From assembly GCA_963674745.2 (NCBI GenBank), contig CAXXDV010000003.1, forward strand, positions 1,568,001 through 1,632,000: 64,000 bases of DNA, written 5' to 3'. Both the position numbers and the translations under genes were made by a program. This DNA is from Desulfosudaceae bacterium. GTDB lineage: Bacteria > Desulfobacterota > Desulfobacteria > Desulfobacterales > Desulfosudaceae. Shown in pieces: positions 2,685 to 58,902 of this stretch (positions are counted from its first letter, which is position 1; the number at the start of each line of letters is the position of its first letter). The notes beneath the pieces were generated by a model, which did no database searches, had not been told where the DNA came from, and saw only the letters and a list, made by a program, of their open reading frames with translations.

Positions 2685-2750
2685 GAATTCCGGTGCCAGT
2701 ATACCTATTTATCTTTTGCGGAATTCGTGGTGATACTGGCACCGGAATTC
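2685..2750 (+). repeat. Family C REP-like inverted pair
   Basis: gaattccggtgccagtatac ... atactggcaccggaattc; recurs at 5607, 9917, 10574. Confidence 0.85.
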
Positions 2751-2768
2751 GTGATGTGTGTTTCGATT

Positions 2769-3062
2769 TCATGTTTTTGTAAAAAGAATACCTTTAAGTC
2801 CCGGCAGGTCAGGCTGCATGGCGACGATATATTCTTTTCGGTCTTTTGTCAGGCGCTTGATTGCCGCCTCGATTTTGTAGGCATCACTTTTTGAATCCGC
2901 CGCAATGGTATAAACCAGTTCCAGTGATCTGGATGCTCTCGTGTATTTGGCCGCTTTGTCCCCGCCTTCAAGGTGCTCGTAGTATCTGGCAACGGGGTTT
3001 ATGGCGACGCCGGTATAAAGAGCGTTTCTATCATTCCGCAGGATGTAAACATGCCACACCAT
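2769..3062 (-). CDS. GIY-YIG nuclease family protein (YhbQ-like)
   Basis: WHVYIL...LYTG, AAKYTR and AYKIEAAIKRL motifs. Confidence 0.88.
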   Translation of the reverse strand: MVWHVYILRNDRNALYTGVAINPVARYYEHLEGGDKAAKYTRASRSLELVYTIAADSKSDAYKIEAAIKRLTKDRKEYIVAMQPDLPGLKGILFTKT

Positions 3063-3087
3063 GAGTTTTGATGACCTTGAACATTTT

Positions 3088-3270
3088 CAAAACTTCGTTA
3101 TAGGGAAGTTTCTTCCGATAAAATAAAAAAACCAACCCCACAAGGGGAATGAAAGATGGTAGGTTATAAGAGCCTGTTTAGTCAACTGCTTGCCTTTTTT
3201 AACTGGAACAAATTTGAATAACTGGTTGTAAAGCACATTGCCGGGCGATACGCCAAGGGTTTCATATGAC
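3088..3270 (+). pseudogene. Remnant left end and N-terminus of an IS4-family transposase
   Basis: Decayed frame SLFSQLL...LVVKH..RYAKGF; upstream sequence resembles 41325-41420. Confidence 0.5.
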
Positions 3271-3496
3271 GGGGTGTAAACTGGCGTCTGGACTTCAAGA
3301 AACAGCGATTATTCCAGGTCACAAATATTCAAATTGGAAAATTTAGAAAATGATTCCGCTTTTGTAACAGAAGCATTTAGAGAGAATGTCCTTGATAATG
3401 GTCTGCATTGTGTTTATGTGAGGGAAGAGAAAGCATTAAATGGTCAAATAAATTATTCAGGGAATATTATTTAATATTGGATGTAAAGGAGGGTGC

Positions 3497-5575
3497 GTGA
3501 TGAGAATGAAATGCCTGTTTCTGTTAATCTGTGTTGCCGCTGTTTCTCCAAGATATGCTCAAGGGGTTGTTTGGTCGGGCCTCGACTATTCCTTTTCCAA
3601 GGTGAATTACGCAGACTGGACAGCGCCTGAGAACCAAGACTGGATATCATCCAACGTTCACATCACACGCCAGAATAATGAAGGTCTTTTCAACATTGTT
3701 CTGGAATCAGGCTACCAGGGATGGGATACCAGCCCCATGGATACGGAATGGGCCTTTTCCGGATTGAACGGTTGTGCCACATTTTCAGCGGGTTCAGGCG
3801 CCGTTCAGCATGCTTCTTTAACGTTCGATAATTTTGCCCGGGCACTTTATGTCAATGTCGGGGACTATATTGTGGGAACACCCGGTGTGGTTCATTTGAT
3901 ATCCGAGGATATCTACATCGACATCCTCTTCACAAGCTGGCAAAAAGGCGGTGCCGGCGGCGGATTTGCCTACAATCGTGCATCCAGTTCCCCCACTGTC
4001 ACAACCGGTGCCGCCAGTGACATAACAATGGCGGCGGCTAAACTAAACGGTGTTATAAACGCTTGGAATTACAGCACTACCGCCACCTTTGAGTATGGCC
4101 TTGATACGGGATACGGCACAACGGTTACGGCGGACCAAAGCCCTGTTACAGGCGCAACGAACACGGCGGTCAGCTGCACTATAGGTGGGCTTACGCTCAA
4201 CACGACTTACCATTACCGTGCCGTGGGGCAATACTCATTAGGGACAATCAATGGCGCTGATATGACGTTTACAACCCTTGCGGATACAGATGGTGATGGA
4301 GAACCGGACATTACTGATGGTTGCCCAAACGATCCTAATAAGATTACCCCTGGTATATGTGGTTGCGGCGTAGCAGATATAGACAGTGACGGGGATGGCT
4401 CGCCTGACTGCAATGATCGGTGCCCGAACGATGCCAATAAGATGGTTCCCGGAGTTTGTGGTTGTGGCGTAAGCGATATTGACTCAGATAACGATGGTAC
4501 TCTGGACTGTAATGATCTCTGTCCGAATGACCCCAACAAGACAGACCCCGGAATATTCGGTTGCGGCGTTTCTGATGACGATACAGACAATGACGGAACG
4601 CCTGATGATAACGACGCTTGTCCCAACGACCCTGATAAAACAAATCCAGGTGTTTGTGGTTGCGGCGTCTCTGATATGGATACCGACAATGATGGAATCC
4701 CGGACTGCAATGATGATACGCCGAACGGTGTATGGGACGATTATGATGACGATGATGCGGACTTCTGCGATTTTATCCCGGTAGCCGTTTTGCCTTTAGA
4801 TGGCGCCGTTGATACATCGCCTACCCCCACGTTTGTTATTGATTGGGATATTGATCCGGATACTTGCGGAGACCACCATAAAACCCGCTGGCAGATAAGC
4901 GAGCGGCCTGATTTTTACGGGTTGACCTACAACAAAAATACCATTGGTAAAGACCCCTTCAGCCATAATGTTGCGCCGGGTGTTTTAACGCCGGATACCA
5001 CCTATTACTGGCGTGCCAGGGTATGGTGCAGCCAGGAATGCAAGTCCCGCTATTCAGAAGCGGTTTCCTTTACGACAGCGCCGGACCCGAACGATAACAA
5101 CCAGCCGGGGAATCAGGGGAATCATTCCAGGGGTGTTAATGCTGTTGTTGGAAACCAGTATGTCACCATTGAAACATCGGAAAACATAACCTTTTTACAG
5201 GCACTGGATAACAATGACCAGGATATCCTCGATGGTATGCCGGATAACATGCCATGGGGTCTGATCAATTTCAGGATTGAGATCGCTACCCCGGGTGATA
5301 CCGTCCAGATCACAATATTTTTTGAAGAAAAAGCGCGGAATAATGCGGTTTTTTATAAATATGACCCGGTAGAAGGCTGGATTGATTATTCCGACCATGC
5401 CACTTTTGCGCCTGACATGAAGTCCGTTACCATTGAAATCCAGGATGGCGGGTTCGGTGATATGGATGGAACGGTTAATGGTGTTATTGTCGATCCCTGT
5501 GGAATCGGGACCTTTGCATCAGGCGGAGGCGGAGGCGGGGGATGTTTTATCGATAGTACGTCTTTAACTCGATAG
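3497..5575 (+). CDS. Secreted/surface protein with FN3-like domains, TSP3-like Asp/Cys repeats and a C-terminal GGGGGCFI motif
   Basis: Signal peptide; four full 33-aa DxDxDG..D.CPND..K..PG.CGCG repeats plus one partial; GGGGGGGCFI tail. Confidence 0.8.
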   Translation: MMRMKCLFLLICVAAVSPRYAQGVVWSGLDYSFSKVNYADWTAPENQDWISSNVHITRQNNEGLFNIVLESGYQGWDTSPMDTEWAFSGLNGCATFSAGSGAVQHASLTFDNFARALYVNVGDYIVGTPGVVHLISEDIYIDILFTSWQKGGAGGGFAYNRASSSPTVTTGAASDITMAAAKLNGVINAWNYSTTATFEYGLDTGYGTTVTADQSPVTGATNTAVSCTIGGLTLNTTYHYRAVGQYSLGTINGADMTFTTLADTDGDGEPDITDGCPNDPNKITPGICGCGVADIDSDGDGSPDCNDRCPNDANKMVPGVCGCGVSDIDSDNDGTLDCNDLCPNDPNKTDPGIFGCGVSDDDTDNDGTPDDNDACPNDPDKTNPGVCGCGVSDMDTDNDGIPDCNDDTPNGVWDDYDDDDADFCDFIPVAVLPLDGAVDTSPTPTFVIDWDIDPDTCGDHHKTRWQISERPDFYGLTYNKNTIGKDPFSHNVAPGVLTPDTTYYWRARVWCSQECKSRYSEAVSFTTAPDPNDNNQPGNQGNHSRGVNAVVGNQYVTIETSENITFLQALDNNDQDILDGMPDNMPWGLINFRIEIATPGDTVQITIFFEEKARNNAVFYKYDPVEGWIDYSDHATFAPDMKSVTIEIQDGGFGDMDGTVNGVIVDPCGIGTFASGGGGGGGCFIDSTSLTR

Positions 5576-5595: not shown

Positions 5596-5711
5596 GAATT
5601 CCGGTGGAATTCCGGTGCCAGTATACCTATTTCTCTTTGTTGACACCGGCAGCAAGTGAATCTCCTCCCGCCGCAGAGCGGGAGGAGATTCAGTATACTG
5701 GCACCGGAATT
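5596..5711 (+). repeat. Family C REP-like inverted pair with internal palindrome
   Basis: gaattccggtg-gaattccggtgccagtatacc ... gaatctcctcccgc/gcgggaggagattc ... gtatactggcaccggaatt. Confidence 0.85.
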
Positions 5712-5728
5712 GGGCCCAGCAGTACTCA

Positions 5729-5762
5729 AGAAACGCATATAATCATAGACGTCCCCACTTTT
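5729..5762 (-). repeat. Family A REP left end (reverse orientation)
   Basis: Reverse complement of aaagtggggacgtctatgattatatgcgtttct. Confidence 0.85.
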
Positions 5763-5777
5763 TTCCACTGACCTAGC

Positions 5778-6677
5778 CTATTGATTTGCCCAATCGATTA
5801 CCAATTGAGCCCAGCGCTCCCCTTGTTGTTCTTGTATAAAATGAAGGCCGTTCAAAGTAACATGAGGCTCCCCTTTTGCGCCGGGCACTTTATTCTTAAA
5901 TGGTTCTATACATGGACCTGTTAACGGGTCGTTATCCGAGAAGCATAACAGCATCGGTTTCTCCCATTTTTCCAAGACCTTCCAGGCATTTCGGTTATCT
6001 TCAGATGCAGGGTCATCTGGTGAAACCGGAACGAGCAAGGGAAACTGGCGCGCACCAGCCTTATATTCTTCAGAAGGAAATGGGGCTCGATAAGCATCTT
6101 TTTCCGCTTCGGTTAAGGGGCCCTCATCAAACATATTCACTATTAATCCAATATCAAAATCTTCGACTGTTTGGCTAAGCTCACGCCACCCCATAAAGAA
6201 ATCTGACATCGGTTCATCACCAGTTTGCAATCCTGTGTTTGAAATAGAAACACGCGAGAACTTCTCAGGCATAGCGGTAAGAAGCCTTAATCCAATATGA
6301 CCACCCCAGTCTTGAGCGACCAAAGTTATTTCATTTAACTCGAGTGAATTAAGCCAATCACTCATCCATTTAACATAATTCGCTACAGAATAAGCGTCGC
6401 GATCGGTAGGCTTGTCAGAACGACCAAATCCAATAAGGTCTGGGGCTATCACGCGGTACCCTGCAGATAAAAATACCGGTATCATCTTACGATAAAGAAA
6501 ACTCCACGTTGGTTCACCATGCATGCATAGCACAACCGGTTGGTTCGCATCCCCTTCATCAATATAGGCGACTCGCAACGCACCAATTTTTTCGTCAACG
6601 ACTTCCAGGTATTTAGGTTGATAGGGAAAGTTGGGTATATCTTTGAATCGCTCTTCTGGTGTACGTAATACGTTCAT
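5778..6677 (-). CDS. Haloalkane dehalogenase
   Basis: LRTPEERF N-terminus, HGEPTWS, QDWGG nucleophile motif, HFIQE. Confidence 0.9.
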   Translation of the reverse strand: MNVLRTPEERFKDIPNFPYQPKYLEVVDEKIGALRVAYIDEGDANQPVVLCMHGEPTWSFLYRKMIPVFLSAGYRVIAPDLIGFGRSDKPTDRDAYSVANYVKWMSDWLNSLELNEITLVAQDWGGHIGLRLLTAMPEKFSRVSISNTGLQTGDEPMSDFFMGWRELSQTVEDFDIGLIVNMFDEGPLTEAEKDAYRAPFPSEEYKAGARQFPLLVPVSPDDPASEDNRNAWKVLEKWEKPMLLCFSDNDPLTGPCIEPFKNKVPGAKGEPHVTLNGLHFIQEQQGERWAQLVIDWANQ

Positions 6678-6729
6678 TTTTTCCTCCCATGTTGGGTATG
6701 TGGTTAAATCCTTTCAAGTGACTACGTGC

Positions 6730-7716
6730 TTAAAATCGGGAAATTTTACCCGGAAGAATGTAGTTGTAGGTTTTTTTCATCACGCCTGTCCTGATGAAAC
6801 GATCCAATCGCCGGCACTGCAGGAAAGCCTCAAGGAGGACAACATCTTTTTGGTAAAAGGATTTGATCTCTTTTATGGTAATTTTACGTTGCAGTTTCAG
6901 GTGATGGCCGTTTTCCTCTATCCAACTGTGAATGAAATCCAGTGTGATTTTAATACGGTCCGGCCGGCCCTCCTTGATGTAGTTGGCCAGGTGATCCAGG
7001 ATAATTTCACGTGGGCAAAAATAGGAGTCAAAGTAGCGCTGCATCATACCGAGCCTGTTGAAAATAAACCGCACCGGTAATGGCATGGCTTTTCCGATGA
7101 TGGTGCTGTCAAAAAGATCCGTCGTTCCTTTCCGAATGCAGGGCGTTGCCACATCGAGGAGGCGAATCGTGTCCTTTGTCACATGCCAGTTGGAGATTTG
7201 GGAATCCGCTGCAATGAGAATGTTATCCGGATTGGTGTGGTTGAAAGAAAAGATTTTTTCCGCATTTTCCAGAAAACCGGCGACGACGAAGAACAACGCT
7301 TCGTCTGTCCCGTTTTTTAAAATATCATTTCCCAATTCCGTCCCGGGAAGAGCCGGTTGTGTGAGATAAACAGTAAATCCGCCTACAGGGGCCTTGACGG
7401 AAGCAAAACGGGTGGGAACCACATCCACACCGATGGATTCAAGGGTTTGGCAATACCGTTTGACCAATGCGATATACGAATGAACTTGTGACTCGGTCTC
7501 AAAACCGGACATTCGCTTACACACCCGATCGGGCAGGGCCTTAAGTGTAAGAACCGCAGACACCTCACCACAGGCCACAACCGTTGCGGGCATGACGCCT
7601 GATTCAGGTCTGCAGGGATCAAGCTGATTTTCAAATTGCTGCAGCACCTCTTGTTCCGAAATGTTAAAAGTCGGCGACTGAGGGGTGATTTCATCAGAGG
7701 CGGTCACGGCGTGCAT
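6730..7716 (-). CDS. Hypothetical protein, kinase-like (DUF6206-like), co-oriented with the aminotransferase
   Basis: 328-aa ORF overlapping the upstream gene stop; GEVSAV and DSQISNW motifs. Confidence 0.65.
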   Translation of the reverse strand: MHAVTASDEITPQSPTFNISEQEVLQQFENQLDPCRPESGVMPATVVACGEVSAVLTLKALPDRVCKRMSGFETESQVHSYIALVKRYCQTLESIGVDVVPTRFASVKAPVGGFTVYLTQPALPGTELGNDILKNGTDEALFFVVAGFLENAEKIFSFNHTNPDNILIAADSQISNWHVTKDTIRLLDVATPCIRKGTTDLFDSTIIGKAMPLPVRFIFNRLGMMQRYFDSYFCPREIILDHLANYIKEGRPDRIKITLDFIHSWIEENGHHLKLQRKITIKEIKSFYQKDVVLLEAFLQCRRLDRFIRTGVMKKTYNYILPGKISRF

Positions 7717-8933
7717 ATTTTCAAGGCCTCCTCAAATCGGGAAAGGATATCGTCGATTAACGGTTGATCCAGGTAAAGCCAGGGTTTGCATTGCATTACC
7801 GAATAGTCGAAACCGGCGATCATGGCCCAGATACCGTTTTCATATAGCGCCTTACACATGCTTACCGCCCCGAAAGGATTATCATATTGAAGGCCGATCA
7901 CCAGTCCGCACTGTCTGATTTCTTTTAAAAACGGATAACGGCTTTTAAGGTCGGCAAATCCCTTGCCTAAAATTGCGGCATTTTTTCTAACCGAGGCCAG
8001 GATTTCCGGATCAGAGCAGATGTCCAGAACACGGGAGGCCACATGACACCCCGGTTCTGCGCCCCCAAAAGTGGAAATATGACCGAAACCGTTTTCCGTA
8101 AGCCATCCCCCGTATTTTTTTGAAATGACGGTGGCTGAAATGGGGTAGATGCCGCCCGAGAGCCCCTTGCCCGTGACCAGAATATCCGGGATTATCCCGA
8201 ATGTTTCCACTCCCCAGAGATGCCCCGTTCGCCCCAGGCCTGTTTGTACTTCATCGGCAATATAAAGCGCGCCGTATTTATCACACAGTTTCCTGACCCC
8301 CTCGAGGTAGCCATCTTCGGGAAGCGGAAAGCCGTATGTTGCCGGTATGGTTTCCATGATGACGGCTGCTGTTTTTTCCTTCTCGAGAATCTTCTCCATT
8401 GCGGAAAGATCATTGAAGGGGACATGAATGTATTCATCTTGCGACCCCCTGCTCAGGAAAAAGTCAGCGTTTTTCGGATCCCCTACATTGCCGGAAAGGC
8501 CTGTGCTGCCGTGGTACCCCTTGTCCAGGGAAACGATTTGCCGCCTTTGTGTGGCCCACCTGGCAGTTTTTATGGCAATGTCTACGGCTTCGCTGCCGCC
8601 GGTAGCAAAGACAGTGTAGTGAAGATCTCCCGGTGTTTTCTCTGCCAGTTTCCCGGCCAAAACGGCCCTTGCTTCAGAGGCAAAATGGTGGTTCCCAATA
8701 TCTGTTTCTTCAAGTGCGGACGTTAGTATGCGGATCAGTTCCGGATGACGATGTCCCAGGTTGAAGGTGCCGCCGTTAATATGCAGGTCTATGAGCCGCT
8801 GTCCGTCAATGTCAAAAATATAGGGCCCTTCCCTTTTGCCGATTACAAGATCGATGCCGATCTGATGAAATGTATTTATTTTCCCGGGGCAAACATACTC
8901 CCTGGCCATTTTGAAAATGTCCTTTTTTTCCAT
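7704..8933 (-). CDS. Class III aminotransferase (PLP-dependent)
   Basis: DEVQTGLGRTG, GKGLSGG, STFGG; start at MEKKD. Confidence 0.92.
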   Translation of the reverse strand: MEKKDIFKMAREYVCPGKINTFHQIGIDLVIGKREGPYIFDIDGQRLIDLHINGGTFNLGHRHPELIRILTSALEETDIGNHHFASEARAVLAGKLAEKTPGDLHYTVFATGGSEAVDIAIKTARWATQRRQIVSLDKGYHGSTGLSGNVGDPKNADFFLSRGSQDEYIHVPFNDLSAMEKILEKEKTAAVIMETIPATYGFPLPEDGYLEGVRKLCDKYGALYIADEVQTGLGRTGHLWGVETFGIIPDILVTGKGLSGGIYPISATVISKKYGGWLTENGFGHISTFGGAEPGCHVASRVLDICSDPEILASVRKNAAILGKGFADLKSRYPFLKEIRQCGLVIGLQYDNPFGAVSMCKALYENGIWAMIAGFDYSVMQCKPWLYLDQPLIDDILSRFEEALKICTP

Positions 8934-8980
8934 TGTCTTTCCTTTCCGGATGGTTACTGTCTTCAGTGCCCTAAAGTATT

Positions 8981-9122
8981 GGGCACCTCTAAAAATTGCC
9001 TTTTGGCCCGATGTCGGCGTTGTGCTCAAATTTTAATCCTCGAAATACTTCTATGTATTCCTGTGGTTAAAATTTTCACACGCCTTGACCTCGAACCAAA
9101 ATTCTAATTTTTAGAGATACCC
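8981..9122. mobile_element. MITE-like element with terminal inverted repeats (copy 1)
   Basis: gggcacctctaaaaatt ... aatttttagagataccc; homologous to 12851-13000. Confidence 0.8.
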
Positions 9123-9157
9123 ATCATGTTTAACTTATTAAAAATTCTATTGCTTTA

Positions 9158-9229
9158 TTTTATGTAACGCGTTAAATAAAACACAGGTTTTAATGGATTG
9201 CAAGATATTTTTAATACGCGTTCTAAAAA
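9158..9229. promoter_or_regulatory. Two ACGCGT-centred palindromes, candidate TetR operators
   Basis: ttttatgtaacgcgttaaataaaa and ttttaatacgcgttctaaaa between divergent genes. Confidence 0.5.
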
Positions 9230-9240
9230 AGGTTAAAGTT

Positions 9241-9900
9241 ATGTCCACGAAAGAAAAAAGAAGGGGCCGCCCGCCCAAAAGTGACCGGCAGAAGGAAGTC
9301 ATACGACAACGGATCATCGCGAGTGCCAGAGAACTGTTTCTGGATGAGGGATTTGAAAAGGTTTCAATGAGAAAGATAGCGGTAAAGGCCCGTTGCACAC
9401 CAACCACACTCTATCACTATTTCCGCAATAAACGCCATATTCTCCATTTTCTGTGGGAGGAACTTTTTCAACAGCTTTCAGACTCATGCGTGGAAGCTGT
9501 GCAGGGATATAAGGATCCCCTTTCCCGAATCCGGCGTTTAATGACCCAATATATCCATTACTGGTTGGAAAATAAGGATCATTACAGGGTGATCTTTATG
9601 ATTGAAGACCTTTCATCACCCCCTGACGAAGACGTGAATGCGACAAGTATAATGGGTAGAATGCAGGGGTTCCAGATCCTTGTGGAGGCCATTGAACAAG
9701 GGTGCAAAGACGGACTGTTTTTTTATGATGATATGGAACTGATCTGGCAAATTCTCTCTACACATGTCCACGGGATCGTAACAAGCCTTATTACGGTGCG
9801 GGAAATTCAGTGGAGACCGGATCACGAACTCATCGAAAGCAGCATTGAGACGACTCTTCGGGGACTGGTAAATGAAGGTCATCTGCTAAAGAGATATTAA
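9241..9900 (+). CDS. TetR/AcrR family regulator
   Basis: N-terminal HTH (SMRKIA...TLYHYFRNK). Confidence 0.92.
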   Translation: MSTKEKRRGRPPKSDRQKEVIRQRIIASARELFLDEGFEKVSMRKIAVKARCTPTTLYHYFRNKRHILHFLWEELFQQLSDSCVEAVQGYKDPLSRIRRLMTQYIHYWLENKDHYRVIFMIEDLSSPPDEDVNATSIMGRMQGFQILVEAIEQGCKDGLFFYDDMELIWQILSTHVHGIVTSLITVREIQWRPDHELIESSIETTLRGLVNEGHLLKRY

Positions 9901-9916
9901 AAGAGCACTGCTATCA

Positions 9917-9933
9917 GAATTCCGGTGCCAGTA
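9917..9933 (+). repeat. Family C REP (single arm)
   Basis: gaattccggtgccagta. Confidence 0.75.
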
Positions 9934-10038
9934 ATTCCTTAAAACCCAAGAAACCCGGCCCAAAAGGGAACATGTGAAATCCCGGGACTCCGGAATTAAC
10001 GCGTAATAATCGTTGATGGTGACAGATAGAACCCGGTT

Positions 10039-10491
10039 TTATCTGCAAAAGCCAAAATCATAGTCGCGCACCTGCGTATATCCCTCACCGGCCTTGCGGC
10101 AGATACGCCAAGTGGAATCCCAGCACGCGGCGGTGCAGTCACAATTTTTTGAGTCGTTGCCCAGGCCGACATTTTTGGTTAAAAGCTTTCGCCATACGTT
10201 ATTGGCGGCATCGTAATATTGACCCTTCAGACAGCAAGGACACAGACTACCGGTTTCAAAGGTATAGCTATCACCTGCAGAAATCGTAACAACCCCCACC
10301 CAATCTTCATTAACTAATTTATCCTTGCTTAAATTCACCTTACACTTGCTACCGGAGTCATTAATAACCGTAACCTTGTGATTGATGCCCCCGCCGGCGT
10401 TGGTTTCTCTTGGCGCGACCCACACGATCGTGACAACAGCAACTAATATTATTAATACCAAGCCGATTGTTTTTGCGTTTTTCTTGAGCAT
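10039..10491 (-). CDS. Small secreted Cys-rich protein (paralog of 31781-32230)
   Basis: GGAGG RBS, signal peptide, GGGIN..VTV.ND, FETGSLCPC, CWDS.W..CRKAG. Confidence 0.8.
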   Translation of the reverse strand: MLKKNAKTIGLVLIILVAVVTIVWVAPRETNAGGGINHKVTVINDSGSKCKVNLSKDKLVNEDWVGVVTISAGDSYTFETGSLCPCCLKGQYYDAANNVWRKLLTKNVGLGNDSKNCDCTAACWDSTWRICRKAGEGYTQVRDYDFGFCR

Positions 10492-10573
10492 AATACCTCC
10501 TTTTAGTTATCTCCCTACCCCCAATATTTCATGAATTTTTCCGACAAAAGGGAATAAACATATACATAACAGT

Positions 10574-10598
10574 AATTCCGGTGCCAGTATACCTAATT
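10574..10598 (+). repeat. Family C REP (single arm)
   Basis: aattccggtgccagtatacctaatt; contains the stop of the 10593-10970 ORF. Confidence 0.8.
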
Positions 10599-10970
10599 CA
10601 AAAACAATTCGGCATTTACGGATACTTCTCCATCACAGGCGATGATGCCTCTTTTTATCAAGTAAATGACACACGCCAGCATGGAGCGCTGGGCAGCCGG
10701 GTGCAGAAAATCAGGAACATCACTATATAGATCAGCTACCATCCCGGAGATGGTGTTTGGGCCTTTTGCCAGTTCATCCAATATTTGCTGCTCACGTTTT
10801 TTGCGATGTACGAGAAATGATTCGACATAGTTTTTGGTGTCCCGGATGCCGGGACCATGGGCGGGCCAGTAGTAAATGTCGTCTCTGTGCAGCAGCAGGT
10901 CCAGGCTGTTTATATAGTTTTCCATGTTTCCCGAAGGGGGGGATATGACAAAAGGTATATCACCTGTCAT
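10593..10970 (-). pseudogene. C-terminal fragment of an MBL-fold hydrolase (LACTB2-like)
   Basis: VISPPSGNMENY, PAHGP, HRKKREQQI; the HxHxDH half is missing. Confidence 0.7.
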
Positions 10971-11024
10971 GAACGTCTCCTGTATGGATCCCGGTTACCC
11001 ATGGACCTTTCATTCTAACCGCTG

Positions 11025-11693
11025 CTACCGCCAGGCAAAATGGGGCTGGTCATAATGATCCACCCGTTTATTTTTTCCTAAAATCGCCACTTCCCGGAAT
11101 TGATAAATCATCGCCGCTGTGGGTGCTGCAATGAAATTGTTACCAACAGGCATAATCAAAGCCGGATGATCGCTTTCGGGAATCGGCTGCAGAATGGGTG
11201 AATCCGGGCGCATGAATTCAGCCAGGGGAATACGATGAATCGACGCAACCTCTTCGGGATTGGCCGTCAGTGTAAGGCCGGTACCGCCCCATACCACGAC
11301 CGGGGAAATGGTGAATCCCGATCTCGTGCTGTAGTCATCCAGGCGCCCGATAATCCGATCTTCACCAAGCTTCAGCCCGACCTCTTCCTCAAGTTCCCTT
11401 AAGGCCGTATCTTCCGGACGTTCTCCCGCATCCATGCGGCCTCCGGGCAGTGCCCACTGGTGCGCATGTTTTCTGAGCGTTGTTGCCCTTTGCGTCAGGA
11501 TAAGGGCGGCATGACTTGCCCACGCTTCATGAAACGGGATATCATAGACTCCCGGATCATTTTGGACATCAACGACCGTAAGGGAAACCGCAGCGTTTCT
11601 GTAACCCGCTTTGTCATGCGTTCGTATGTCAAACCGTTTCAGGTTCGAAATAATCCGGTGCAGCAGGTTTTCATTGCAAATGAGCTGATTCAT
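11025..11693 (-). CDS. Nudix hydrolase (CoA pyrophosphatase-like)
   Basis: Nudix box GGRMDAGERPEDTALRELEEEVG; H..QWALPGG. Confidence 0.9.
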   Translation of the reverse strand: MNQLICNENLLHRIISNLKRFDIRTHDKAGYRNAAVSLTVVDVQNDPGVYDIPFHEAWASHAALILTQRATTLRKHAHQWALPGGRMDAGERPEDTALRELEEEVGLKLGEDRIIGRLDDYSTRSGFTISPVVVWGGTGLTLTANPEEVASIHRIPLAEFMRPDSPILQPIPESDHPALIMPVGNNFIAAPTAAMIYQFREVAILGKNKRVDHYDQPHFAWR

Positions 11694-11740
11694 ATGTCTT
11701 TTTGACTGGTTCGTCTTCATTAAGAAAGTGGTAAGAAAGT

Positions 11741-11810
11741 GGGGACGCCTATGATTTTATGCGTTTCTTCAGCACTACGGGGAGAAACGCATAAAATCAT
11801 AGGCGTCCCC
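11741..11810 (+). repeat. Family A REPIN (perfect 28-bp inverted arms, 14-nt loop)
   Basis: ggggacgcctatgattttatgcgtttct-tcagcactacgggg-agaaacgcataaaatcataggcgtcccc, flanked by aaagt and ttatccc. Confidence 0.92.
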
Positions 11811-12783
11811 TTATCCCTTTTATACTTTCTATCCATCTGGGCGTCTCTGCAAAAAACGTATCCACAATCCGTTTGAACTGATCCGGATTTTTGGCTTTTT
11901 TAATTTTTTTATAAATTTTCCCGCCGTCTTCAAATGAGCAGGAGAAATAATTCCAGTAGCCTTTCATTTTATCTAAAAGATGCGATGGGCCACTTAAAAT
12001 CATGCTGTACCGGTAAACCAGCTCATCGTGAAACTTTTTAAAAACCATCGTCTTATCCTGAATCGTATCCTTGTCCTTTTTGATTATGTCGGGAAGAAAC
12101 GGATTGGATAGTGCAAAGCGGCCGATCATCCAGCGATCGACTGTGGGAAATCTTGCAGATAGAAATCGGAATGTTTCGAGGTTTTCTATGTTGCCGTTGT
12201 ATACAACCCGGTGATCAGAAAGCTCAAGGCATTTCTCAAAAATATCGAGATCCGGTTCTCCCTCATACCGTTGTATGCCGATTCTCGGGTGAATGATAAT
12301 CTCTGAAATGGGATGGTGATTGAAAAGAGGGATCAGGTTCAGAATATCCGAACTGTTTTTCCATCCGGTACGTGTTTTTATTGACAGCCGGTTTGGAATC
12401 GCCGGGATAACTTTATCCAGAAACGAATTGATCTCTTTCGTATATGGAAGAAACCCGGAACCTCGCTTCTTTTTGGCGACGATGGGAAAGGGACAGCCGA
12501 GATTCCAGTTCACTGTGTCATATCCCAGATCGAATAAAACAGAGGCAAGCTGAATGAAGCCATCAGGATCATTGCTCAGGATCTGGGGGATAACAGGCAT
12601 GCCAGAATTGTTTTCAGGAAGTATATCCTTAATGTGGGATCTACCGATCTGCTTTGCCTTCACAGAGGCGATAAAAGGTGCAATAGCCAGATCAAATCCA
12701 GTGAAATATTCAGAGAAAAGGTTTCTGTAAAGCGAATTTGTAAATCCCTGGATTGGAGCAAGATAAAGTTTGATTTTTTTCAT
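11797..12783 (-). CDS. tRNA-dihydrouridine synthase family protein
   Basis: LAPIQG, NWNLGCP, IIHPR, YNG, MIGR motifs; stop lies inside the REPIN. Confidence 0.9.
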   Translation of the reverse strand: MKKIKLYLAPIQGFTNSLYRNLFSEYFTGFDLAIAPFIASVKAKQIGRSHIKDILPENNSGMPVIPQILSNDPDGFIQLASVLFDLGYDTVNWNLGCPFPIVAKKKRGSGFLPYTKEINSFLDKVIPAIPNRLSIKTRTGWKNSSDILNLIPLFNHHPISEIIIHPRIGIQRYEGEPDLDIFEKCLELSDHRVVYNGNIENLETFRFLSARFPTVDRWMIGRFALSNPFLPDIIKKDKDTIQDKTMVFKKFHDELVYRYSMILSGPSHLLDKMKGYWNYFSCSFEDGGKIYKKIKKAKNPDQFKRIVDTFFAETPRWIESIKGIRGRL

Positions 12784-12850
12784 TGGCGACTGCGAAATTC
12801 TAAACAGAATTATTCCGAAGCGTTTCGGATTTTTTCAAATAAACACTTTA

Positions 12851-16535: not shown

Positions 16536-16550
16536 AATCCAACAACCGCC

Positions 16551-48357: not shown

Positions 48358-48388
48358 TTTCCTTATGAAATTGGTGGAATAAGTTTGT

Positions 48389-50169: not shown

Positions 50170-50404
50170 TCACGTTACTGTTCCTGCCGGTAGAATATGA
50201 CTGCTTGATGGATAAGAGCTTGCTTTTATATAGCAAGTGCGGCCTTGTGTGTCAATATCTTTTAGGGTACCACCTAATAGGGCTCTTTTCTCATGTTCCC
50301 GATTATGGCTACTGGGCTGAATAATCCCAAAATTTGCCGACCGGGAGACACAGTAGCGCCGTCTCAAAAATCTCGTATTTTTCTTTGTATTCCACTGCTC
50401 TGAC

Positions 50405-50700
50405 ATTTTTTCTGTTCTTTTTATCTCTTTGATAATGTTCTTTAGAGTCCTGCGTTAAAGGGCCATCAACATGTGGTGGTCTCCTAAAACCATCGATTGG
50501 CAATGATTTATGATGAGACTGCCGGTTAAACGCTGGGCATTGATGCTACAGAAATTGAAGCCGCAGAGCGATTTTTTTGACCCTTGTGGCCGCTGAACAG
50601 CCCTGTAAAAAACCAATCGCAAGTTTGTGGGAGCTCAAAAATATTGACACACAAGGCTGTCCTTGCCATTAATGATGACCATAAAAGCAACTTCTTATCC
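50405..50700 (+). mobile_element. Family B element, right half
   Basis: tttatctctttgataatg, ccatcaacatgtggtgg, atattgacacacaagg...cttcttatcc. Confidence 0.75.
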
Positions 50701-50741
50701 CTATCAGGAATAAGCATTTAATTGTTTTAAAGGTAAAAAAA

Positions 50742-53303: not shown

Positions 53304-53449
53304 GGGTATTGCAAAAAAACATCCGAGTCTCCTCTTATATTAGTGTTTAATAGAGAACCAATAATAAAAACAGAAGGGACCCAAATGGTAAAACAGCGAA
53401 TACACGATATCAGGAAAAAGGCCACCAGTAAACAATTTAAGGGGCCTCA

Positions 53450-53753
53450 GGGGTCGGACCTAAAGGGCCTCAGGGAGCGGACCTAACTAACGGTCTGATC
53501 TAAAACAAGATACATCTCAAAATCACCGAAGAATAAGGCTTAGAAAGCACTTTTTGCCCCTAAAAAGATCATTCTAAGTTTTTTTACATAATTGGCATCT
53601 TAAATCAATGTTATTAACCCCCAAAAGTTATTTTAAAAGCTAAGAAACAGCTTTATTTATTTTCACCGGGCGGATTAAAGTGCGGTCTCAAAAATATTGA
53701 CACACAAGACCGTCATTGCTATAAATGGTTAACTTAAAAACAAGTTCTTATCC
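53450..53753 (+). mobile_element. Family B element with both ends (about 300 bp)
   Basis: Duplicated left end ggggtcggacc/gggagcggacc; TTGACA(53697)-17-TATAAA; caagttcttatcc. Confidence 0.82.
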
Positions 53754-53832
53754 TTCCTTTATACTTATCCTTTGAAGACACTGGGGGTGCTGAAACGGAA
53801 ATAAAAACATTGACCGAACGCAGAACGTCATA

Positions 53833-55805: not shown

Positions 55806-56447
55806 ATGCGTCATGAACTGACAGACAAGCCGAGGGAAGTCCGTTGTATTCCCGCCGACATCGACCCGGAACTTTTGAAGCAGGACCTTCCGGTTTTCCA
55901 ACAGAAAGCCGTTGACGCCGGTGCTGCCGACTGTGCCGTTATCACCAGCAGAGACATCATTTTCAACCCGGAAATTACCGCCCGGGTGGCGGCGGACAGT
56001 CGTTTTCCTTCCGTACACTGGCCCCTGGATTACCCCGTAGACGACCTGGCCGAGGCGCTTTGCGCCTATGATAAAGGTATTTTCTTTCGTATGGGCAGGG
56101 TCCCCGGCATGCCGGCCTACGGCGGCGGCCCGATAAGGGATGAAAGCCATCGCCGTCTTTATCAGCAGACCTATGAAATCATTACCCTGATCGAGTCGGC
56201 CGCCTTTTATCTCGGGTATCATCTGGCAATGGGGCTGGCGGCAGGCAACTGCCGGGGCATTTTCTGCGCGGAGGAAAAGCGGTGCCGGCCGATGATCAAA
56301 GGCCAGTCTTGTATCCACGCGAATATCGGCCGTCCTTCTATGGAGGCGGCCGGAATTGACGCCCGGGCCATGTCTGCGGCGCTGAAATGGGAAACAGGTC
56401 CCCCCCCCGATGGTTTTGAAATCGCGGGGCTGGTGATGATTGCCTGA
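55806..56447 (+). CDS. DUF2284-like metal-binding protein
   Basis: AAGNC..IFC, RPSMEAAGID. Confidence 0.75.
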   Translation: MRHELTDKPREVRCIPADIDPELLKQDLPVFQQKAVDAGAADCAVITSRDIIFNPEITARVAADSRFPSVHWPLDYPVDDLAEALCAYDKGIFFRMGRVPGMPAYGGGPIRDESHRRLYQQTYEIITLIESAAFYLGYHLAMGLAAGNCRGIFCAEEKRCRPMIKGQSCIHANIGRPSMEAAGIDARAMSAALKWETGPPPDGFEIAGLVMIA

Positions 56448-56464
56448 AAAGAGAGGAAGCGTCA

Positions 56465-57154
56465 GTGACCAATGCTGCGGTAACAGAACCGGAAAACCGG
56501 CTGGAAAACAACGTTCAGCATCTTAAACGTCTGGCCGTAAAACGCGGTGCTGATGATGCCGTGGTCATCTCTGCCGCGGATGTCATCGTTGACCCCCGGG
56601 TCCGGTTTAAATGCATGATACCCAGATGTTACATGTCCGGTAGCTGCGGCCACTGCCCCCCGCACGGGTATTCCACTCAACAAACGCGGGACATCGTGTC
56701 CGGGTATGGCCGGGCCGTTTTTTTCCGGGTCGGCGTCAAAAGTACCATCATTGCGGCCGACAATGTCCACGAAGCCATTGAATCCGGGGTAATGGATGCC
56801 GGCGGTCATGCCTTGAACCTGGGCGGGTACTATATCCTGGTGTTCAGTATTGTTAAAATTCTGCAAAAAACGGCCGAAGCCGAAGGCTACCGCACCCATG
56901 GTTTTGCCGCAGGTAACTGCCGGGATCCGTTCTGCCATCTTAGGCCGGTTTGCCAGAGCCTGATGACCGACCGGGGCTGCCGGCATCCCAACCTGAGTTC
57001 TTTCTCCATGGAATCCACCGGCATGGATGTTTACCGGATGGCGGCCAGGGTCGGCTGGCAGCAGTATCCCATTGGCGGGAGTTGTCAGCCGGACAGTGTC
57101 CCCCGGGGAAGCCTGATGGGGCTGGTACTGGTAGGCCAAAAAAAAGAGGGGTAA
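56465..57154 (+). CDS. DUF2284-like metal-binding protein
   Basis: DPRVRFKC..PRC......CPP, AAGNC, SMESTGMDV. Confidence 0.8.
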   Translation: MTNAAVTEPENRLENNVQHLKRLAVKRGADDAVVISAADVIVDPRVRFKCMIPRCYMSGSCGHCPPHGYSTQQTRDIVSGYGRAVFFRVGVKSTIIAADNVHEAIESGVMDAGGHALNLGGYYILVFSIVKILQKTAEAEGYRTHGFAAGNCRDPFCHLRPVCQSLMTDRGCRHPNLSSFSMESTGMDVYRMAARVGWQQYPIGGSCQPDSVPRGSLMGLVLVGQKKEG

Positions 57155-57158
57155 AACC

Positions 57159-57416
57159 ATGAAAAAACGGCCGGCAGGCATTTCCCTTAAAATCCGTGAA
57201 ATCCGCAAAAACATTCAGGCCCTCAAGCAAATGAACCTGACACCGGCCCAGGCAATGAATATGCTCAAAGAACCGGTACTGTGGTTCCGGGTGACTCGGA
57301 ATTTTCGTGAAATTGAAGGGTCCTGGTTCAAAGCCATCAAGCTTTACGTCTATATGTTTGAAGGCGTACCCGACAAAAGGCGGGACAAATCAGCCGGAAG
57401 CAACAGGAAACGATAA
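57159..57416 (+). CDS. Small basic hypothetical protein
   Basis: GAGG RBS, follows the DUF2284 pair. Confidence 0.5.
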   Translation: MKKRPAGISLKIREIRKNIQALKQMNLTPAQAMNMLKEPVLWFRVTRNFREIEGSWFKAIKLYVYMFEGVPDKRRDKSAGSNRKR

Positions 57417-57514
57417 GCAACCGGTTAACCATTATTGCGTTCATACCCATGAGTATTTTTTTATCCTATATTAAAGAACCCTTTTATTCCAGAAGTTCCG
57501 TCACCACCAGGGGT

Positions 57515-57570
57515 AACCGGGGTCGGACCAAAAGAAGGTTTAGACTAACAGGTTGATTTAAAATCGCGAA
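57515..57570 (+). repeat. Family B left end
   Basis: aaccggggtcggaccaaa. Confidence 0.75.
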
Positions 57571-57712
57571 AACCCCCTGAATCCCCCCCTAATTCTTGAG
57601 TTCTCCCCCGAATTCACCAAACAACTTTGAAAGATTGCCCGGAATTGCTATTATTGTAATGATACAAAACAATAGAGAGAACAAAATTAACATCCTGACC
57701 TGGGGAGAAAAA

Positions 57713-58810
57713 ATGGCGTTAAATTCGGATTCATCGAACCCGGCCGATAAAAGGCATATCCCTTCAAAAGCAAAGATGAAAAAATTCAAGGCGACCTTCA
57801 ACGGCGAGACGATAAGGGGCAATTATGTTCTTATCGACGCCAGATCGTCCGAAGAAAAAACGGCCGACAAGGCCGATGGAAGCCTGAAAGGCCCGGTAAT
57901 GGTATTCTTTCAGGGCCACGGTCAGCGGCCGAAAGACTGCTATGAATTCACGAAGGTGCTGGCGCTTAACGGTTTATCGGGTATATGCCTTGTGCCGACA
58001 TGCGACACCCCTTTTGGTGACGATCCGGCATGGCGGGGCGACCGGGGAAAAATGGTCATCCTGATGGAGGCGATCAGGCATATGCTCGATGAGTGCGGCG
58101 TCTCGGTCGAAGGCTTCAGCCCGATAACCGACATGCCATCGCTGATAAACGGCAGTCCCCTCGTCCCGAAGCCGGACAACAGTTCCGGGAACATCTGTTC
58201 GATCGGCTGGTCTCACGGCGGGATACTCGCCAGGGAATTTGCCTCGAACTATCCCGGCGCCGTCATTGGACTGGCCACTGTCTGCCCGGCCGGTTATAAA
58301 AAATGGAAAAATCCCGGCCATCTGCTCGTAAGATTCGCACTGGAAGCGATCAATTCGGGCGTGCAGACGCTGACAAAAAAATCCCCCGGCGCTATCGGTT
58401 CCGCGTGGGGGCTTACCTGCGGACTTACCGGTGATATTTCCAGATCGGTGACCGACAGCCTTTTGTCAGGCAAACCGTCCAAACTGACGAGGGCATATAA
58501 AGATATCAGCGACTGCGCCCGATTAACTGACGACAGCGTCGCACCGGTCGGCGGCCTTAAAAACATAGCGGTCATCTTCGCGCGCAACGATACATGCATA
58601 GCGGCAGGCGAATACGGCATCGGAAATCTTGATAATCCTTCCGACAGCGACATCGAAGCGTTCTGGAAGCGATACTATCCGTCTAATCCGGCGGACAAAA
58701 CGACTCTGGCATTCAGGATTCTGCCGGGATCGCATACGGCGCCGGCTGCGCACAGCAGGCGCTATGCCGAAACGGTTCTGTCCGCGCTCGGTCAGACCGG
58801 ATTGGAATAA
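57713..58810 (+). CDS. Alpha/beta hydrolase
   Basis: GWSHGG nucleophile elbow, PGSH. Confidence 0.75.
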   Translation: MALNSDSSNPADKRHIPSKAKMKKFKATFNGETIRGNYVLIDARSSEEKTADKADGSLKGPVMVFFQGHGQRPKDCYEFTKVLALNGLSGICLVPTCDTPFGDDPAWRGDRGKMVILMEAIRHMLDECGVSVEGFSPITDMPSLINGSPLVPKPDNSSGNICSIGWSHGGILAREFASNYPGAVIGLATVCPAGYKKWKNPGHLLVRFALEAINSGVQTLTKKSPGAIGSAWGLTCGLTGDISRSVTDSLLSGKPSKLTRAYKDISDCARLTDDSVAPVGGLKNIAVIFARNDTCIAAGEYGIGNLDNPSDSDIEAFWKRYYPSNPADKTTLAFRILPGSHTAPAAHSRRYAETVLSALGQTGLE

Positions 58811-58837
58811 ACGCACGAAGGGAGTCCCCTGGCTGGT

Positions 58838-58902
58838 AAATATTGACACACAAGGCCGGACCTTGCTATATGATGATGACCATAAAGGCAGCTTTTTTAT
58901 CC
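58838..58902 (+). repeat. Family B right end with promoter-like sequence
   Basis: aaatattgacacacaaggccggaccttgctata...ttatcc. Confidence 0.78.

Follow-up and report, generated by a model that had tools for sequence, protein, structure and literature searches.

Introduction

Chromosomal rearrangement mediated by REP sequences is a classical theme in Salmonella and E. coli, and repeats of the Correia/NEMIS, ERIC and RUP type can supply promoters, terminators or RNA hairpins. Correia/NEMIS, ERIC and RUP are named as small repeats in one account of TIRYT genes (Di Nocera et al. 2013, PMC3733652). According to that account and the description by Quentin et al. (2018, PMC6006769), Y1 proteins whose C-terminus is Bac_DnaA_C-like form subclass 2.1, which is equated with TIRYT; their genes have on either side long TIRs (terminal inverted repeats) that contain a GGGGWSAS motif, and some families of TIRs show moderate abundance and dimer formation.

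Here we analyse a 64-kb stretch of DNA (the window) on contig C3 of genome G000, corresponding to 1.15% of that genome, in comparison with genomes G001, G002, G007 and G011, the metagenome X1 and the source isolate's own contigs (X15). A first-pass annotation had proposed an integron-like platform in which an HUH enzyme captures foreign genes as cassettes. The window is mostly ordinary and HUH-driven cassette capture is not supported; neither a common recombination site nor a co-oriented array nor an integrase was found in it. The probable account is a mosaic zone of horizontally exchanged blocks together with independent repeat families, and no single platform.

Results

On C3 the cumulative GC skew reaches its peak and levels off at about 1.35–1.85 Mb, a switch that we read as the replication terminus. 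The window sits there and belongs to a plastic zone that spans at least 130 kb (C3 about 1.50–1.63 Mb). Its genes range from 35 to 59% in GC and from 34 to 71% in GC3, which bears out the earlier impression that the units differ in base composition. Background identity is 68–80% to G002 and 67–78% to G007, whereas blocks of the zone reach 83–97% to other genera. Thus hrpB, yhbY and dus are 95–96% identical to G002:C19, the Mo-oxidoreductase and aminotransferases are 89–93% identical to G002:C4, and the PFL-like gene is 94% identical to G011. Compared with G007, the identities are 91–92% from TetR to the aminotransferases, 97% for FMN_red, 95% for the amidase, 92% for yhbY and 90% for the HK-RR pair. 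The arrangement of the blocks differs in each relative; in G007 the shared blocks follow another order than in G000 and form an island between the orthologues of G000 C3:2144975 and 2144559. These comparisons bear out a mosaic make-up of horizontally acquired accessory blocks, exchanged among related Desulfobacterales genera. An IS110-family transposase gene (44491–45612, minus strand) has A-like sequence (see below) on its flanks.

A listing of the gaps between genes gave more than 30 repeat copies in the window, degenerate fragments included, in agreement with the first count. They belong to at least eight unrelated families rather than the three first proposed: A, B, C (with an upstream part of ∼200 nt), D, X, Z, the 3138/41362 family and GC-rich hairpins (27994–28073). 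Repeats had been placed in nearly every gap, and most of the larger gaps do contain them, the counts being 20 of the 36 gaps of at least 30 nt (a segment with at least three other genomic copies) and, at a stricter setting, 16 of 36 gaps of at least 50 nt (a repeat with at least four). None lies inside the three operons at 24098–27907, 38061–41289 and 55806–57416, as had been noticed. The shared orientation first described holds for D (6/6 on the plus strand) and C (4–5 of 5–6 plus), but not for A (3+/2−) and B (3+/4−), which form inverted pairs.

Overall repeat density is not exceptional for the genome. The stricter fraction compares with a median of 29% of gaps in 24 random windows, six of which are denser, and the 18 repeat islands compare with a median of nine per 64 kb (rank 65 of 337). 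Equal density elsewhere had been named as an argument against a special platform, and many other windows are indeed about as dense. The low-copy families A to D are nevertheless clustered locally far beyond chance. The window holds 5/9 genomic copies of A, 7/22 of B, 5/31 of C, 6/16 of the C end and 6/21 of D, with binomial p values of 3e-5 to 4e-9 that are post hoc because the window was chosen for those very repeats. Reversed-pattern controls gave no matches for A, B, C and the C end, and five for D. Random colonisation does not account for such clustering of four low-copy families that are unrelated to one another; local spread, co-transfer with blocks, or selection would be needed.

Families X, Z and W are dispersed MITEs. 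Element X (8976–9132, plus strand) has about 40 copies in G000 and many in other genera, and a second copy (12838–13005, plus) carries an inserted GTAG-type classical REP. G000 has a separate high-copy REP of the GTAG type. Element Z (37934–38064), with 27-nt terminal inverted repeats and about 48 copies, is missing from this site in G001, where the flanks are the same, and lies inside the SnoaL-acyltransferase operon in G002. G002 also lacks W between yhbY and hrpB. Sequences of C, Z, X, D and the A-like type are multi-copy in other genera. This and the presence or absence of Z and W fit ordinary repeat colonisation. Relatives with the same gene order but without the repeats, the other argument named against a platform, were found in part, for Z in G001 and for B, reduced to a 19-nt stub, in G007.

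Family C has the consensus TTGACA-N17-TATAxT with a sharp 3′ end and a CAAG-N6-CTTG inverted repeat between −35 and −10. A co-oriented gene follows 22 of the 24 intergenic genomic copies at 33–446 nt, the strand of C following that of the downstream gene. Conservation is ∼85% over about 70 nt, and in some copies over about 270 nt; one inverted copy and truncated copies occur. We predict that C is a conserved portable or regulon-type sigma-70 promoter module, although a simple promoter scan with its own criteria did not list the C copies. In the window, C with a partial upstream extension (29808–29949, plus; TTGACA-17-TATAAA, 3′ end TTATCC) lies 165 nt before the SGNH gene, and a C-like promoter of the amidase gene (28075–28140, plus) forms the left edge of a segment of 1.58 kb with 95% identity to G007. 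Further copies precede the gene at 53833 (53687–53755, plus) and the YfaZ-like gene (58838–58904, plus), and one (48309–48361, plus) has no co-oriented gene downstream. A composite at 50207–50705 consists of an inverted C, a ∼190-nt C-upstream part, a 150-nt insert and a direct C located 40 nt before the TPR gene.

Family D, of about 130–150 nt, ends in a long hairpin and a T-run, and is a module with a predicted intrinsic terminator. The full-length copy (53449–53600, plus) comprises a 5′ stem-loop (GGGAGCGGACC...GGTCTGATC), a CA-rich middle, a hairpin (AAGGCTTAGA...TCTAAG) and a T-run, and its fold with the terminal hairpin has −25.4 kcal/mol. Other copies follow the SGNH gene (31552–31690, plus) and, by 23 nt, the YadA-like adhesin gene (16558–16631, plus). 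One copy, cut off before the terminator (33623–33695, plus), is directly followed by a C 3′ part (33697–33748, plus) 200 nt before the EEP gene. A D 5′ half (29685–29730, plus) lies 43 nt after the amidase stop, and G007 has a D 3′ half at that site.

If selection kept C as a regulon whose factor binds CAAG-N6-CTTG, and D as small RNAs or 3′-UTR elements, the clustering of C and D would reflect co-regulated accessory genes. The promoter-proximal, co-oriented position of C, its inverted repeat, its conservation in several genera and the small-RNA-like build of D (stem-loop, CA-rich middle, terminator) agree with this, but we consider it improbable, since the length of C, its sharp 3′ edge and its inverted and truncated copies fit duplication or mobility better than an operator, and no Rfam family matched.

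The gene at 21115–22254 (minus strand) encodes a Y1 (HUH) tyrosine transposase of the TIRYT type, with an N-terminal Y1_Tnp domain (PF01797, 45.1 bits) and a C-terminal DnaA_C-like helix-turn-helix (Bac_DnaA_C, E=5.5e-5, below cut-off). The translation shows HVH and the RYIHLNP tyrosine. It scores 54.3 bits against NF047646 (REP_Tyr_transpos), below the cut-off of 80; the first description as RAYT-like was sound in that the protein is a Y1/HUH relative of RAYTs. A short Y1 gene is also present in G000 at C3:924846.

Half of the genomic B copies (11/22) lie in C3:1554–1592k around the Y1 gene, and this 38-kb segment contains a run of seven B sites. One single copy (22288–22318, minus) is located upstream of the Y1 gene, 31 nt from its ATG start codon, and is 100% complementary over 31 nt to another (16634–16664, plus); the two arms of this perfect inverted pair are 5623 nt apart and enclose the Y1 gene and three unrelated passenger genes. 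B also forms hairpin doublets at 23991–24060 and at 11741–11810 (28-nt arms, 14-nt loop), the latter overlapping the 3′ end of the Dus ORF, and a half-doublet of loop and right arm (5715–5766, minus) abuts an A doublet. Y1 homologues in G007 and a G000 paralogue have tight 30–32-nt flanking inverted repeats starting GGGGACG, with arms about 1.04 kb apart and the gene alone between them. On these sequence features, B is the terminal inverted repeat and cognate end of the Y1/HUH gene, of the published TIRYT or "TIRtron" type. No other repeat family of the window is linked to the HUH gene. Family A is a second hairpin-doublet family, next to a multi-copy GIY-YIG gene: the doublet at 2684–2751 (21-nt arms) adjoins the GIY-YIG gene (2769–3062), a segment with two further copies in G000, one likewise beside an A doublet. 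A second doublet is located at 5606–5713 and a single copy at 10572–10592 (plus).

A check whether gene gain or loss breaks on repeat ends had been suggested, and one case was found, a 2.8-kb three-gene indel relative to the congener G002 that ends exactly on B doublets. G000 has a doublet, three genes and a doublet, whereas G002 has one chimeric doublet. Since G007 keeps the aminotransferase–FMN_red adjacency with a 19-nt B stub between, the three-gene state is taken as ancestral, and because the undeleted gene order is common to G007 and G000, the indel is most simply read as a deletion between two pre-existing B doublets (insertion, then B×B recombination). Other block edges hug genes. The amidase block runs from about 20 nt ahead of the −35 to 6 nt past the stop; the dus block extends from the ATG as far as the end of the gene, and its G002 counterpart is set between direct duplicates (∼190 nt) of the 3′ end of hrpB, with a 29-nt C fragment next. 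Such very sharp edges are not obviously accounted for by plain homologous recombination between repeats, and the position of the dus 3′ end, which abuts B in G000, the C fragment in G002 and, in X1 contigs, an A doublet, hints at a targeted process.

A rival explanation is TIRYT-driven exchange, in which the Y1/HUH protein cuts and joins single-stranded DNA at B, and a B-to-B segment is excised as a one-B circle and reinserted at a different B; the run of B sites would then be an HUH-operated set of exchangeable gene modules. This narrows the first-pass proposal to family B. The crowding of B around the Y1 gene, the perfect inverted pair with its passengers and the B-bounded indel all point this way, as does a Mo-oxidoreductase gene between two B doublets in G002. 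Metagenome contigs join B/A edges in other orders (5709 to 11825, 16628 to 5607, 11718 to 5608), and in other Desulfobacterales MAGs several different repeated elements have the exact B 27-mer at their head (33 distinct sites in 31 loci). We nonetheless regard this explanation as unlikely. A B×B event has the same outcome as homologous recombination, and the state with three genes is the ancestral one; G002 has B doublets without a close Y1 orthologue (best 31% identity), whereas G007 has two close homologues (50–53%) and no B when up to 3 mismatches are allowed. The sides of the metagenome joints are short (20–44 nt, at 88% likeness) and the joints involve multi-copy repeats, and X15 showed no alternative joint at B. 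The joint 13307 to 22276 retains B(−), unlike excision of a B-to-B unit, and B does not bound most of the window's units.

G000 has three integron integrases above the TIGR02249 cut-off, which could act in trans on A, B, C and D if these were attC-like sites of an integron-like platform or CALIN, and the units are often single genes of heterogeneous composition. This is scarcely credible. The genome has about 250 canonical attC sites, in arrays outside the zone with a cassette spacing of 400–600 bp, but none of four attC types from this genome has a match in the window or in C3:1.49–1.67 Mb, and the window repeats have no sequence in common with them. Both strands are used, units hold 1–7 genes and many have their own promoter modules. 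The earlier remark that no integron integrase is visible in the window was correct.

Discussion

We return to the mosaic of exchanged blocks and independent repeats. Blocks would carry flanking repeats along when they move, and the repeats would presumably act as substrates for homologous recombination, giving deletions, reshuffling and ends that fall on repeats.

With integrons and CALINs the window shares repeat-separated, unrelated units, often of one gene and of heterogeneous composition, but it lacks a nearby IntI, attC structure or sequence and a common site; both of its strands carry genes and many units come with a promoter of their own, whereas the true integrons of G000 have an attC of about 130 nt every 400–600 bp.

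The TIRtrons or TIRYT genes, as far as the cited accounts describe them (PMC3733652, PMC6006769), resemble the locus in the combination of Y1/HUH with a DnaA_C-like helix-turn-helix, in long inverted flanking repeats starting GGGG, and in a moderate family size with many dimers and clusters. The window differs in that its perfect arms are 5.6 kb apart with three passenger genes, the B head (GGGGACGT) fits the published GGGGWSAS at 6/8 positions, and half of the B copies lie within 38 kb. REPINs and RAYTs, in the description of Bertels and Rainey (2011, PMC3116915), likewise have inverted doublets giving long hairpins, each family belonging to a single-copy Y1 gene that has a repeat type of its own. 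By that description, the single B unit differs in being non-palindromic and without a GTAG head, B has 22 copies rather than hundreds, and the protein falls below the NCBIfam RAYT cut-off.

Like Correia/NEMIS, ERIC and RUP, the window families are small non-coding repeats beside genes whose presence varies among relatives, but C and D lack both terminal inverted repeats of their own and an assignable transposase, and C could just as well be a regulon promoter. The 2.8-kb indel resembles REP-mediated rearrangement, in that the deletion is joined within a dispersed palindromic repeat pair and leaves one chimeric copy; here, however, it separates species that also exchange blocks horizontally.

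Repeat content of the window

The source genome (G000) comprises 5.55 Mb in three contigs with 50% GC, and the window corresponds to C3:1568001-1632000. In the window, 49 ORFs were counted as genes, most of them named via Pfam and NCBIfam. Mutually unrelated accessory genes encode a glycyl-radical enzyme, hydrolases, a YadA-like adhesin, an MCP, an amidase, SGNH esterases and a phosphoesterase, and there are also an HD-GYP operon, a hybrid kinase, a GH51 enzyme, glycosyltransferases and others. These genes span 35–59% in GC and 34–71% in GC3, so the differing composition of units reported by the first-pass annotation is borne out. A 300-nt direct repeat (59556-59855 and 63171-63470, 96% identical) is formed by two copies of an aldehyde:ferredoxin oxidoreductase gene, one only a fragment and the other longer, which bracket the DUF169 and alkyl-sulfatase genes.

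Searched by BLAST against the genome, 20 of the 36 gaps of at least 30 nt hold a segment with at least three other genomic copies. When the whole genome was compared with itself, the window contained 18 repeat islands and ranked 65 of 337, the median per 64 kb being 9. When the window and 24 random control windows were treated by one procedure, gaps containing a repeat with at least four other copies made up 44% (16 of 36) in the window, compared with a control median of 29% and maximum of 80%. The densest windows of the genome are real integron arrays. The overall repeat density of the window is not unusual: repeats are common in gaps genome-wide and six of the 24 random windows exceed the window in repeat-bearing gaps.

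What is unusual is which families occur, not how many repeats there are. The window is 1.15% of the genome, and strict copies within it number 5 of 9 for family A, 7 of 22 for B, 5 of 31 for C, 6 of 16 for the C end and 6 of 21 for D, where reversed-pattern controls gave 0, 0, 0, 0 and 5 matches, respectively. The clustering p-values, calculated post hoc, range from 3e-5 to 4e-9. All nine A copies and 11 B copies are contained in C3:1.50-1.632 Mb.

Repeat families other than B

BLAST of the gaps and sequence comparison revealed at least eight unrelated families where three had been claimed. Family A (GGAATTCCGGTGCCAGTATAC) occurs as hairpin doublets (2684/2731 and 5606/5693) and as singles. 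A stand-alone GIY-YIG nuclease gene of 97 aa (2769-3062, minus strand) abuts the A doublet at 2684-2751, and related DNA is also found at C1:1733826-1734163 and C3:1566004-1566210. The three copies are 94–98% identical and an A doublet directly abuts two of them, which suggests that nuclease and doublet form a small selfish unit. An IS110-family transposase gene (44491-45612; region 44001-45704) has a non-coding leader of 490 nt and A-like sequence on both sides (GGTATTCCGGGGACA... / ...CAGTATACTGG...GGAATTCCA), looking as if the element had inserted into an A-type repeat. A was also considered as a sigma-54 promoter and rejected: its reverse strand reads TGGCAC-N5-TTCC and lacks the -12 GC of the consensus.

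The C consensus (ATTGACAcACAAGGCCGTCCTTGCTATAgATgATGaCCATAAAAGCAAGTTCTTATCC) contains TTGACA, a 17-nt spacing and TATAxT, and it has a sharp 3' edge, with some copies extending ∼200 nt further upstream. At 22 of 24 intergenic C copies genome-wide the next ORF is co-oriented, 33–446 nt away. The D module (∼130–150 nt) begins with a stem-loop at its 5' end, continues through a CA-rich middle and closes with a long hairpin and a T-run. All six strict window D copies lie on the plus strand, four of them after a plus-strand gene. The shared orientation proposed for the repeats thus applies to D; C points at the next gene, and A and B run both ways since each forms inverted pairs. A simple promoter/terminator scan of 27800-34900 gave no enrichment relative to shuffled sequences, and the C and D copies were not among its hits; Rfam at gathering thresholds gave no match in the whole window. 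Near its 5' end (13197-13330), the long ‘YadA’ ORF contains the head of D in reverse orientation as well as a hairpin of the D type, so that the true adhesin start is probably later than 13197.

Family X, dispersed and MITE-like, has about 40 copies, including those at 8976-9132 and 12838-13005. The ∼150-nt repeat is 80–95% identical to many copies in other genera and even in other families of the order, an identity far above background. X has no match in Rfam and may represent either a MITE that has spread widely or an undescribed RNA. Family Z has 27-nt terminal inverted repeats with 93% complementary arms and gives 48 BLAST hits. It is missing at 37938-38060 in one comparison genome (G001), and is found inside the SnoaL-acyltransferase operon of another (G002). 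Family W (∼265 nt) lies immediately left of the window and is missing between yhbY and hrpB in G002, where the two alignments overlap by 6 nt, suggestive of a target duplication. Z and W thus have the terminal inverted repeats, dispersed copies and presence/absence among relatives that define MITEs. The relatives keep the same gene orders without these repeats (Z in G001, W in G002). B alone belongs to the HUH gene. Judged from their sequences, the other families comprise a predicted promoter module, a predicted terminator module, a further family of hairpin doublets (A) and MITEs of an ordinary kind.

The Y1/HUH gene and family B

The Y1/HUH transposase gene (21115-22254, minus strand) encodes a protein of 379 aa that matches PF01797 (Y1_Tnp) with 45.1 bits against a cut-off of 23, and its translation shows HVH (the HUH motif) and RYIHLNP (the catalytic tyrosine). 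A weak match to the Bac_DnaA_C HTH covers the C-terminal residues 255-319 (E=5.5e-5; 23.6 bits, under the cut-off of 31.5), and HTH_23 matches with E=0.056. The Y1/HUH fold implied by the initial description of a RAYT-like gene is therefore present. The protein is a RAYT relative that scores 54.3 bits against NF047646 (REP-associated tyrosine transposase), under the cut-off of 80, and B lacks the GTAG head. A single B unit also lacks a hairpin of its own and, unlike high-copy REPs, has 22 copies in the genome at up to five mismatches (none in the reversed control).

Family B (GGGGACGTCTATGATTTTATGCGTTTC) forms doublets (arms of 28 nt, loop of 14 nt) at 11741-11810 and 23991-24060, a half doublet at 5715-5766, and singles at 16634-16664 (plus strand) and 22288-22318 (minus strand). 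Four doublets occur in the genome (contig coordinates 1554616, 1557513, 1579741 and 1591991). The minus-strand single lies 31 nt upstream of the Y1 ATG, and the same layout is seen at a truncated fourth Y1 start (C1:1411705). The two singles constitute 31-nt arms that are 100% complementary, 5623 nt apart, and that enclose genes for a small membrane protein, an MCP and a PP-loop ATPase together with the Y1 gene. A genome of another genus (G007) has two Y1 homologues with 50–53% identity, tightly bracketed by inverted repeats of 30 and 32 nt that begin GGGGACG(T/C)C and are 1037 and 1042 nt apart. The same arm type is present directly at both ends of a Y1 paralogue in the source genome (C3:2400241-2401263). 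B is tied to the Y1 gene by its position upstream of the ATG, by the perfect arms, and by the TIR-flanked homologues and paralogue.

The heads of these TIRs, GGGGACGT for B and GGGGACGC for the paralogue and G007, each match 6 of 8 positions of GGGGWSAS, which is given in PMC3733652 as the motif of long TIRs around TIRYT genes. As described in PMC6006769 and PMC3733652, TIRYT proteins have DnaA_C-like or HTH C-termini (subclass 2.1) and long flanking TIRs, and some TIR families are moderately abundant, in dimers or clusters. The Y1 gene and B match the published TIRYT/TIRtron arrangement, a pairing of a known kind.

The two partners do not always occur together. G002, of the same genus, carries B doublets and no close Y1 orthologue was found there, while in G007, which carries Y1 homologues, no B was found within three mismatches. 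In other Desulfobacterales MAGs an exact B 27-mer heads several different repeats (33 distinct sites at 31 loci); none of the 33 is a doublet and one is followed by a Y1 start.

A classical GTAG-headed REP (GTAGGGGCAGGCCCCCGTGCCTGCCC) is spread throughout the source genome with a self-match depth above 200 (for example, C3:2291420-2291549 and window 12910-12945), and the corresponding RAYT may be encoded by the short Y1 gene at C3:924846-925439. At C3:2398-2416 kb and C1:1409-1421 kb, orphan Rhs toxin tips are preceded by a B variant that carries a conserved extension of ∼60 nt. The tip ORFs start ...RYLRVDPIG and lie downstream of an RHS gene; the TIRYT paralogue ends one array, the truncated Y1 start lies inside the other, and IS66 copies are located ∼240 nt after two of the B copies. 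A general role of B as a boundary of Rhs orphan toxin cassettes was rejected, since it applies at the two G000 loci and at 0 of the 33 sites elsewhere, and the association was treated as incidental. Nor does B qualify as a dif/Xer site, as likeness to the XerC arm consensus extends over only 7 nt and the XerD arm is absent. GGGGTCGGACC was rejected as a genome-wide polar motif, having just eight exact copies.

Integrons elsewhere in the genome

The absence of an integron integrase noted initially was confirmed, with no integrase-family domain in the 51 scanned window proteins, nor was any found in the 55 proteins of the left flank. Three integron integrases exceed the TIGR02249 cut-off (C3:2348261, C1:2117407 and C3:27977), and the arrays beside them contain canonical ∼130-nt attC sites (TAACGTC...GACGTTA) spaced by 400–600 bp. 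Four attC types of the genome yield about 250 sites in at least seven arrays, in areas at C1:1.45-1.55 Mb, C3:1.80-1.85 Mb, C1:2.10 and 2.25 Mb, C3:0-50 kb, C3:2.30-2.35 Mb and C1:0.90-0.95 Mb. Just three of these arrays adjoin an integron integrase. No IntI above the cut-off lies close to the largest cluster (∼92 sites, C1:1.45-1.55 Mb), which may represent a CALIN of very large size.

Sequence likeness to these attC types revealed no attC in the window or in C3:1.49-1.67 Mb. The attC cores are R'' (RYYYAAC) and R' (GTTRRRY); compared by eye, C and D misfit them and are unconserved there among copies, and so were rejected as attC-like sites. The window genes are on both strands in units of 1–7 genes, many with their own C promoter module. 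By domain search and attC sequence likeness, the window has neither a nearby IntI nor attC sites, and its genes do not form the short, mostly co-oriented, promoterless cassettes of an integron or CALIN.

Mosaic structure of the terminus-proximal zone

On C3, the cumulative GC skew reaches its maximum and levels off at about 1.35-1.85 Mb, which places the window in the terminus region. The 72 kb to its left contain defence genes (DruA, BglII, Fic/RhuM, HipA), signalling genes and housekeeping-like genes, and no conjugation or integrase genes were found there. Background DNA identity to the source genome is 68–80% for G002 and 67–78% for G007, the nearest of the genomes compared. Blocks of the zone are far above this background and occur in other orders in relatives: hrpB, yhbY and dus (95–96%) on G002:C19; the Mo-oxidoreductase and aminotransferases (89–93%) on G002:C4; in G007, TetR to the aminotransferases (91–92%), FMN_red (97%), the amidase (95%), yhbY (92%) and HK-RR (90%); a PFL-like gene in G011 (94%); and the HD-GYP block in G001 and G003 (85–90%). 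In G007 the blocks lie together as an island flanked by orthologues of G000 C3:2144975 and 2144559. The mosaic exchange of gene-sized blocks across genera in this terminus-proximal zone is real.

The block junctions differ in kind. The amidase segment shared with G007 runs from ∼20 nt upstream of the -35 box in a C-like promoter to 6 nt past the stop and is followed by the 5' half of D in G000 and the 3' half in G007, which fits an ancestral promoter-gene-terminator unit that would have undergone differing deletions. In G002 (region C19:79740-81095), dus is directly after hrpB; on its 3' side come 29 nt of the C end in reverse orientation and then a second, direct copy of the last ∼190 nt of hrpB. 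The source genome has dus 60 kb away from hrpB, with a B doublet overlapping the end of dus. The G002 junction resembles a Campbell-type or template-switch-like event, and simple repeat recombination does not account for it.

One indel is bounded by B. In the source genome FMN_red, a 153-aa ORF and an RlmKL-like gene lie between two B doublets; the G002 counterpart is a single chimeric doublet that retains the outer flank of each. G007 keeps the adjacency of aminotransferase and FMN_red, with a 19-nt B stub, indicating that the three-gene state is older and that G002 has a deletion between doublets.

Evidence from public runs was limited to assembled contigs. Those of the isolate's own run (X15) contain no alternative joints at repeats, apart from one contig that skips 170 nt within the Y1 gene; run X17 covers the window in fragments only. 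Contigs of a marine-sediment metagenome (X1) join 5709 to 11825, 16628 to 5607, 11718 to 5608 and 13307 to 22276; in these contigs the same genes have different neighbours, and the edges fall at A, B or D. The joints are suggestive but weak, since the sides are short (20–44 nt), the likeness is 88% and multi-copy repeats are involved.

Discussion

The proposal of an integron-like, HUH-driven cassette array at 2685..58902 was largely right about anatomy, but its unifying mechanism is unsupported: only B is tied to the HUH gene, repeats fill gaps genome-wide, relatives keep gene orders without them, and the real integrons lie elsewhere. We think it improbable that the B ends are working Y1/HUH sites between which DNA, whole genes included, would be excised and reinserted as ssDNA circles, and that the terminus-proximal run of B would be an exchange point for modules that also move between Desulfobacterales genera. 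HUH-mediated cargo movement between B ends retains this small probability on account of the B-bounded indel and the Y1 unit with its passengers. If true, the Y1 unit, whose perfect B arms enclose three passenger genes, would be the first ‘TIRtron with cargo’, and the movement of cargo between B ends by the Y1 enzyme would represent a new HUH route of gene mobilisation.

Apart from this, the terminus-proximal zone trades gene-sized blocks between genera at 90–97% identity, and the standardised predicted promoter (C) and terminator (D) modules are common to several genera. The main value of the analysis lies in correcting an over-reading, in that repeats in nearly every gap do not amount to an integron, and the same genome gives a direct contrast with ∼250 genuine attC cassettes elsewhere. 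What the locus does provide is a clear case of the TIRYT/TIRtron arrangement in Desulfobacterales, with perfect arms around passengers and a repeat-bounded indel that sets it apart from a relative.
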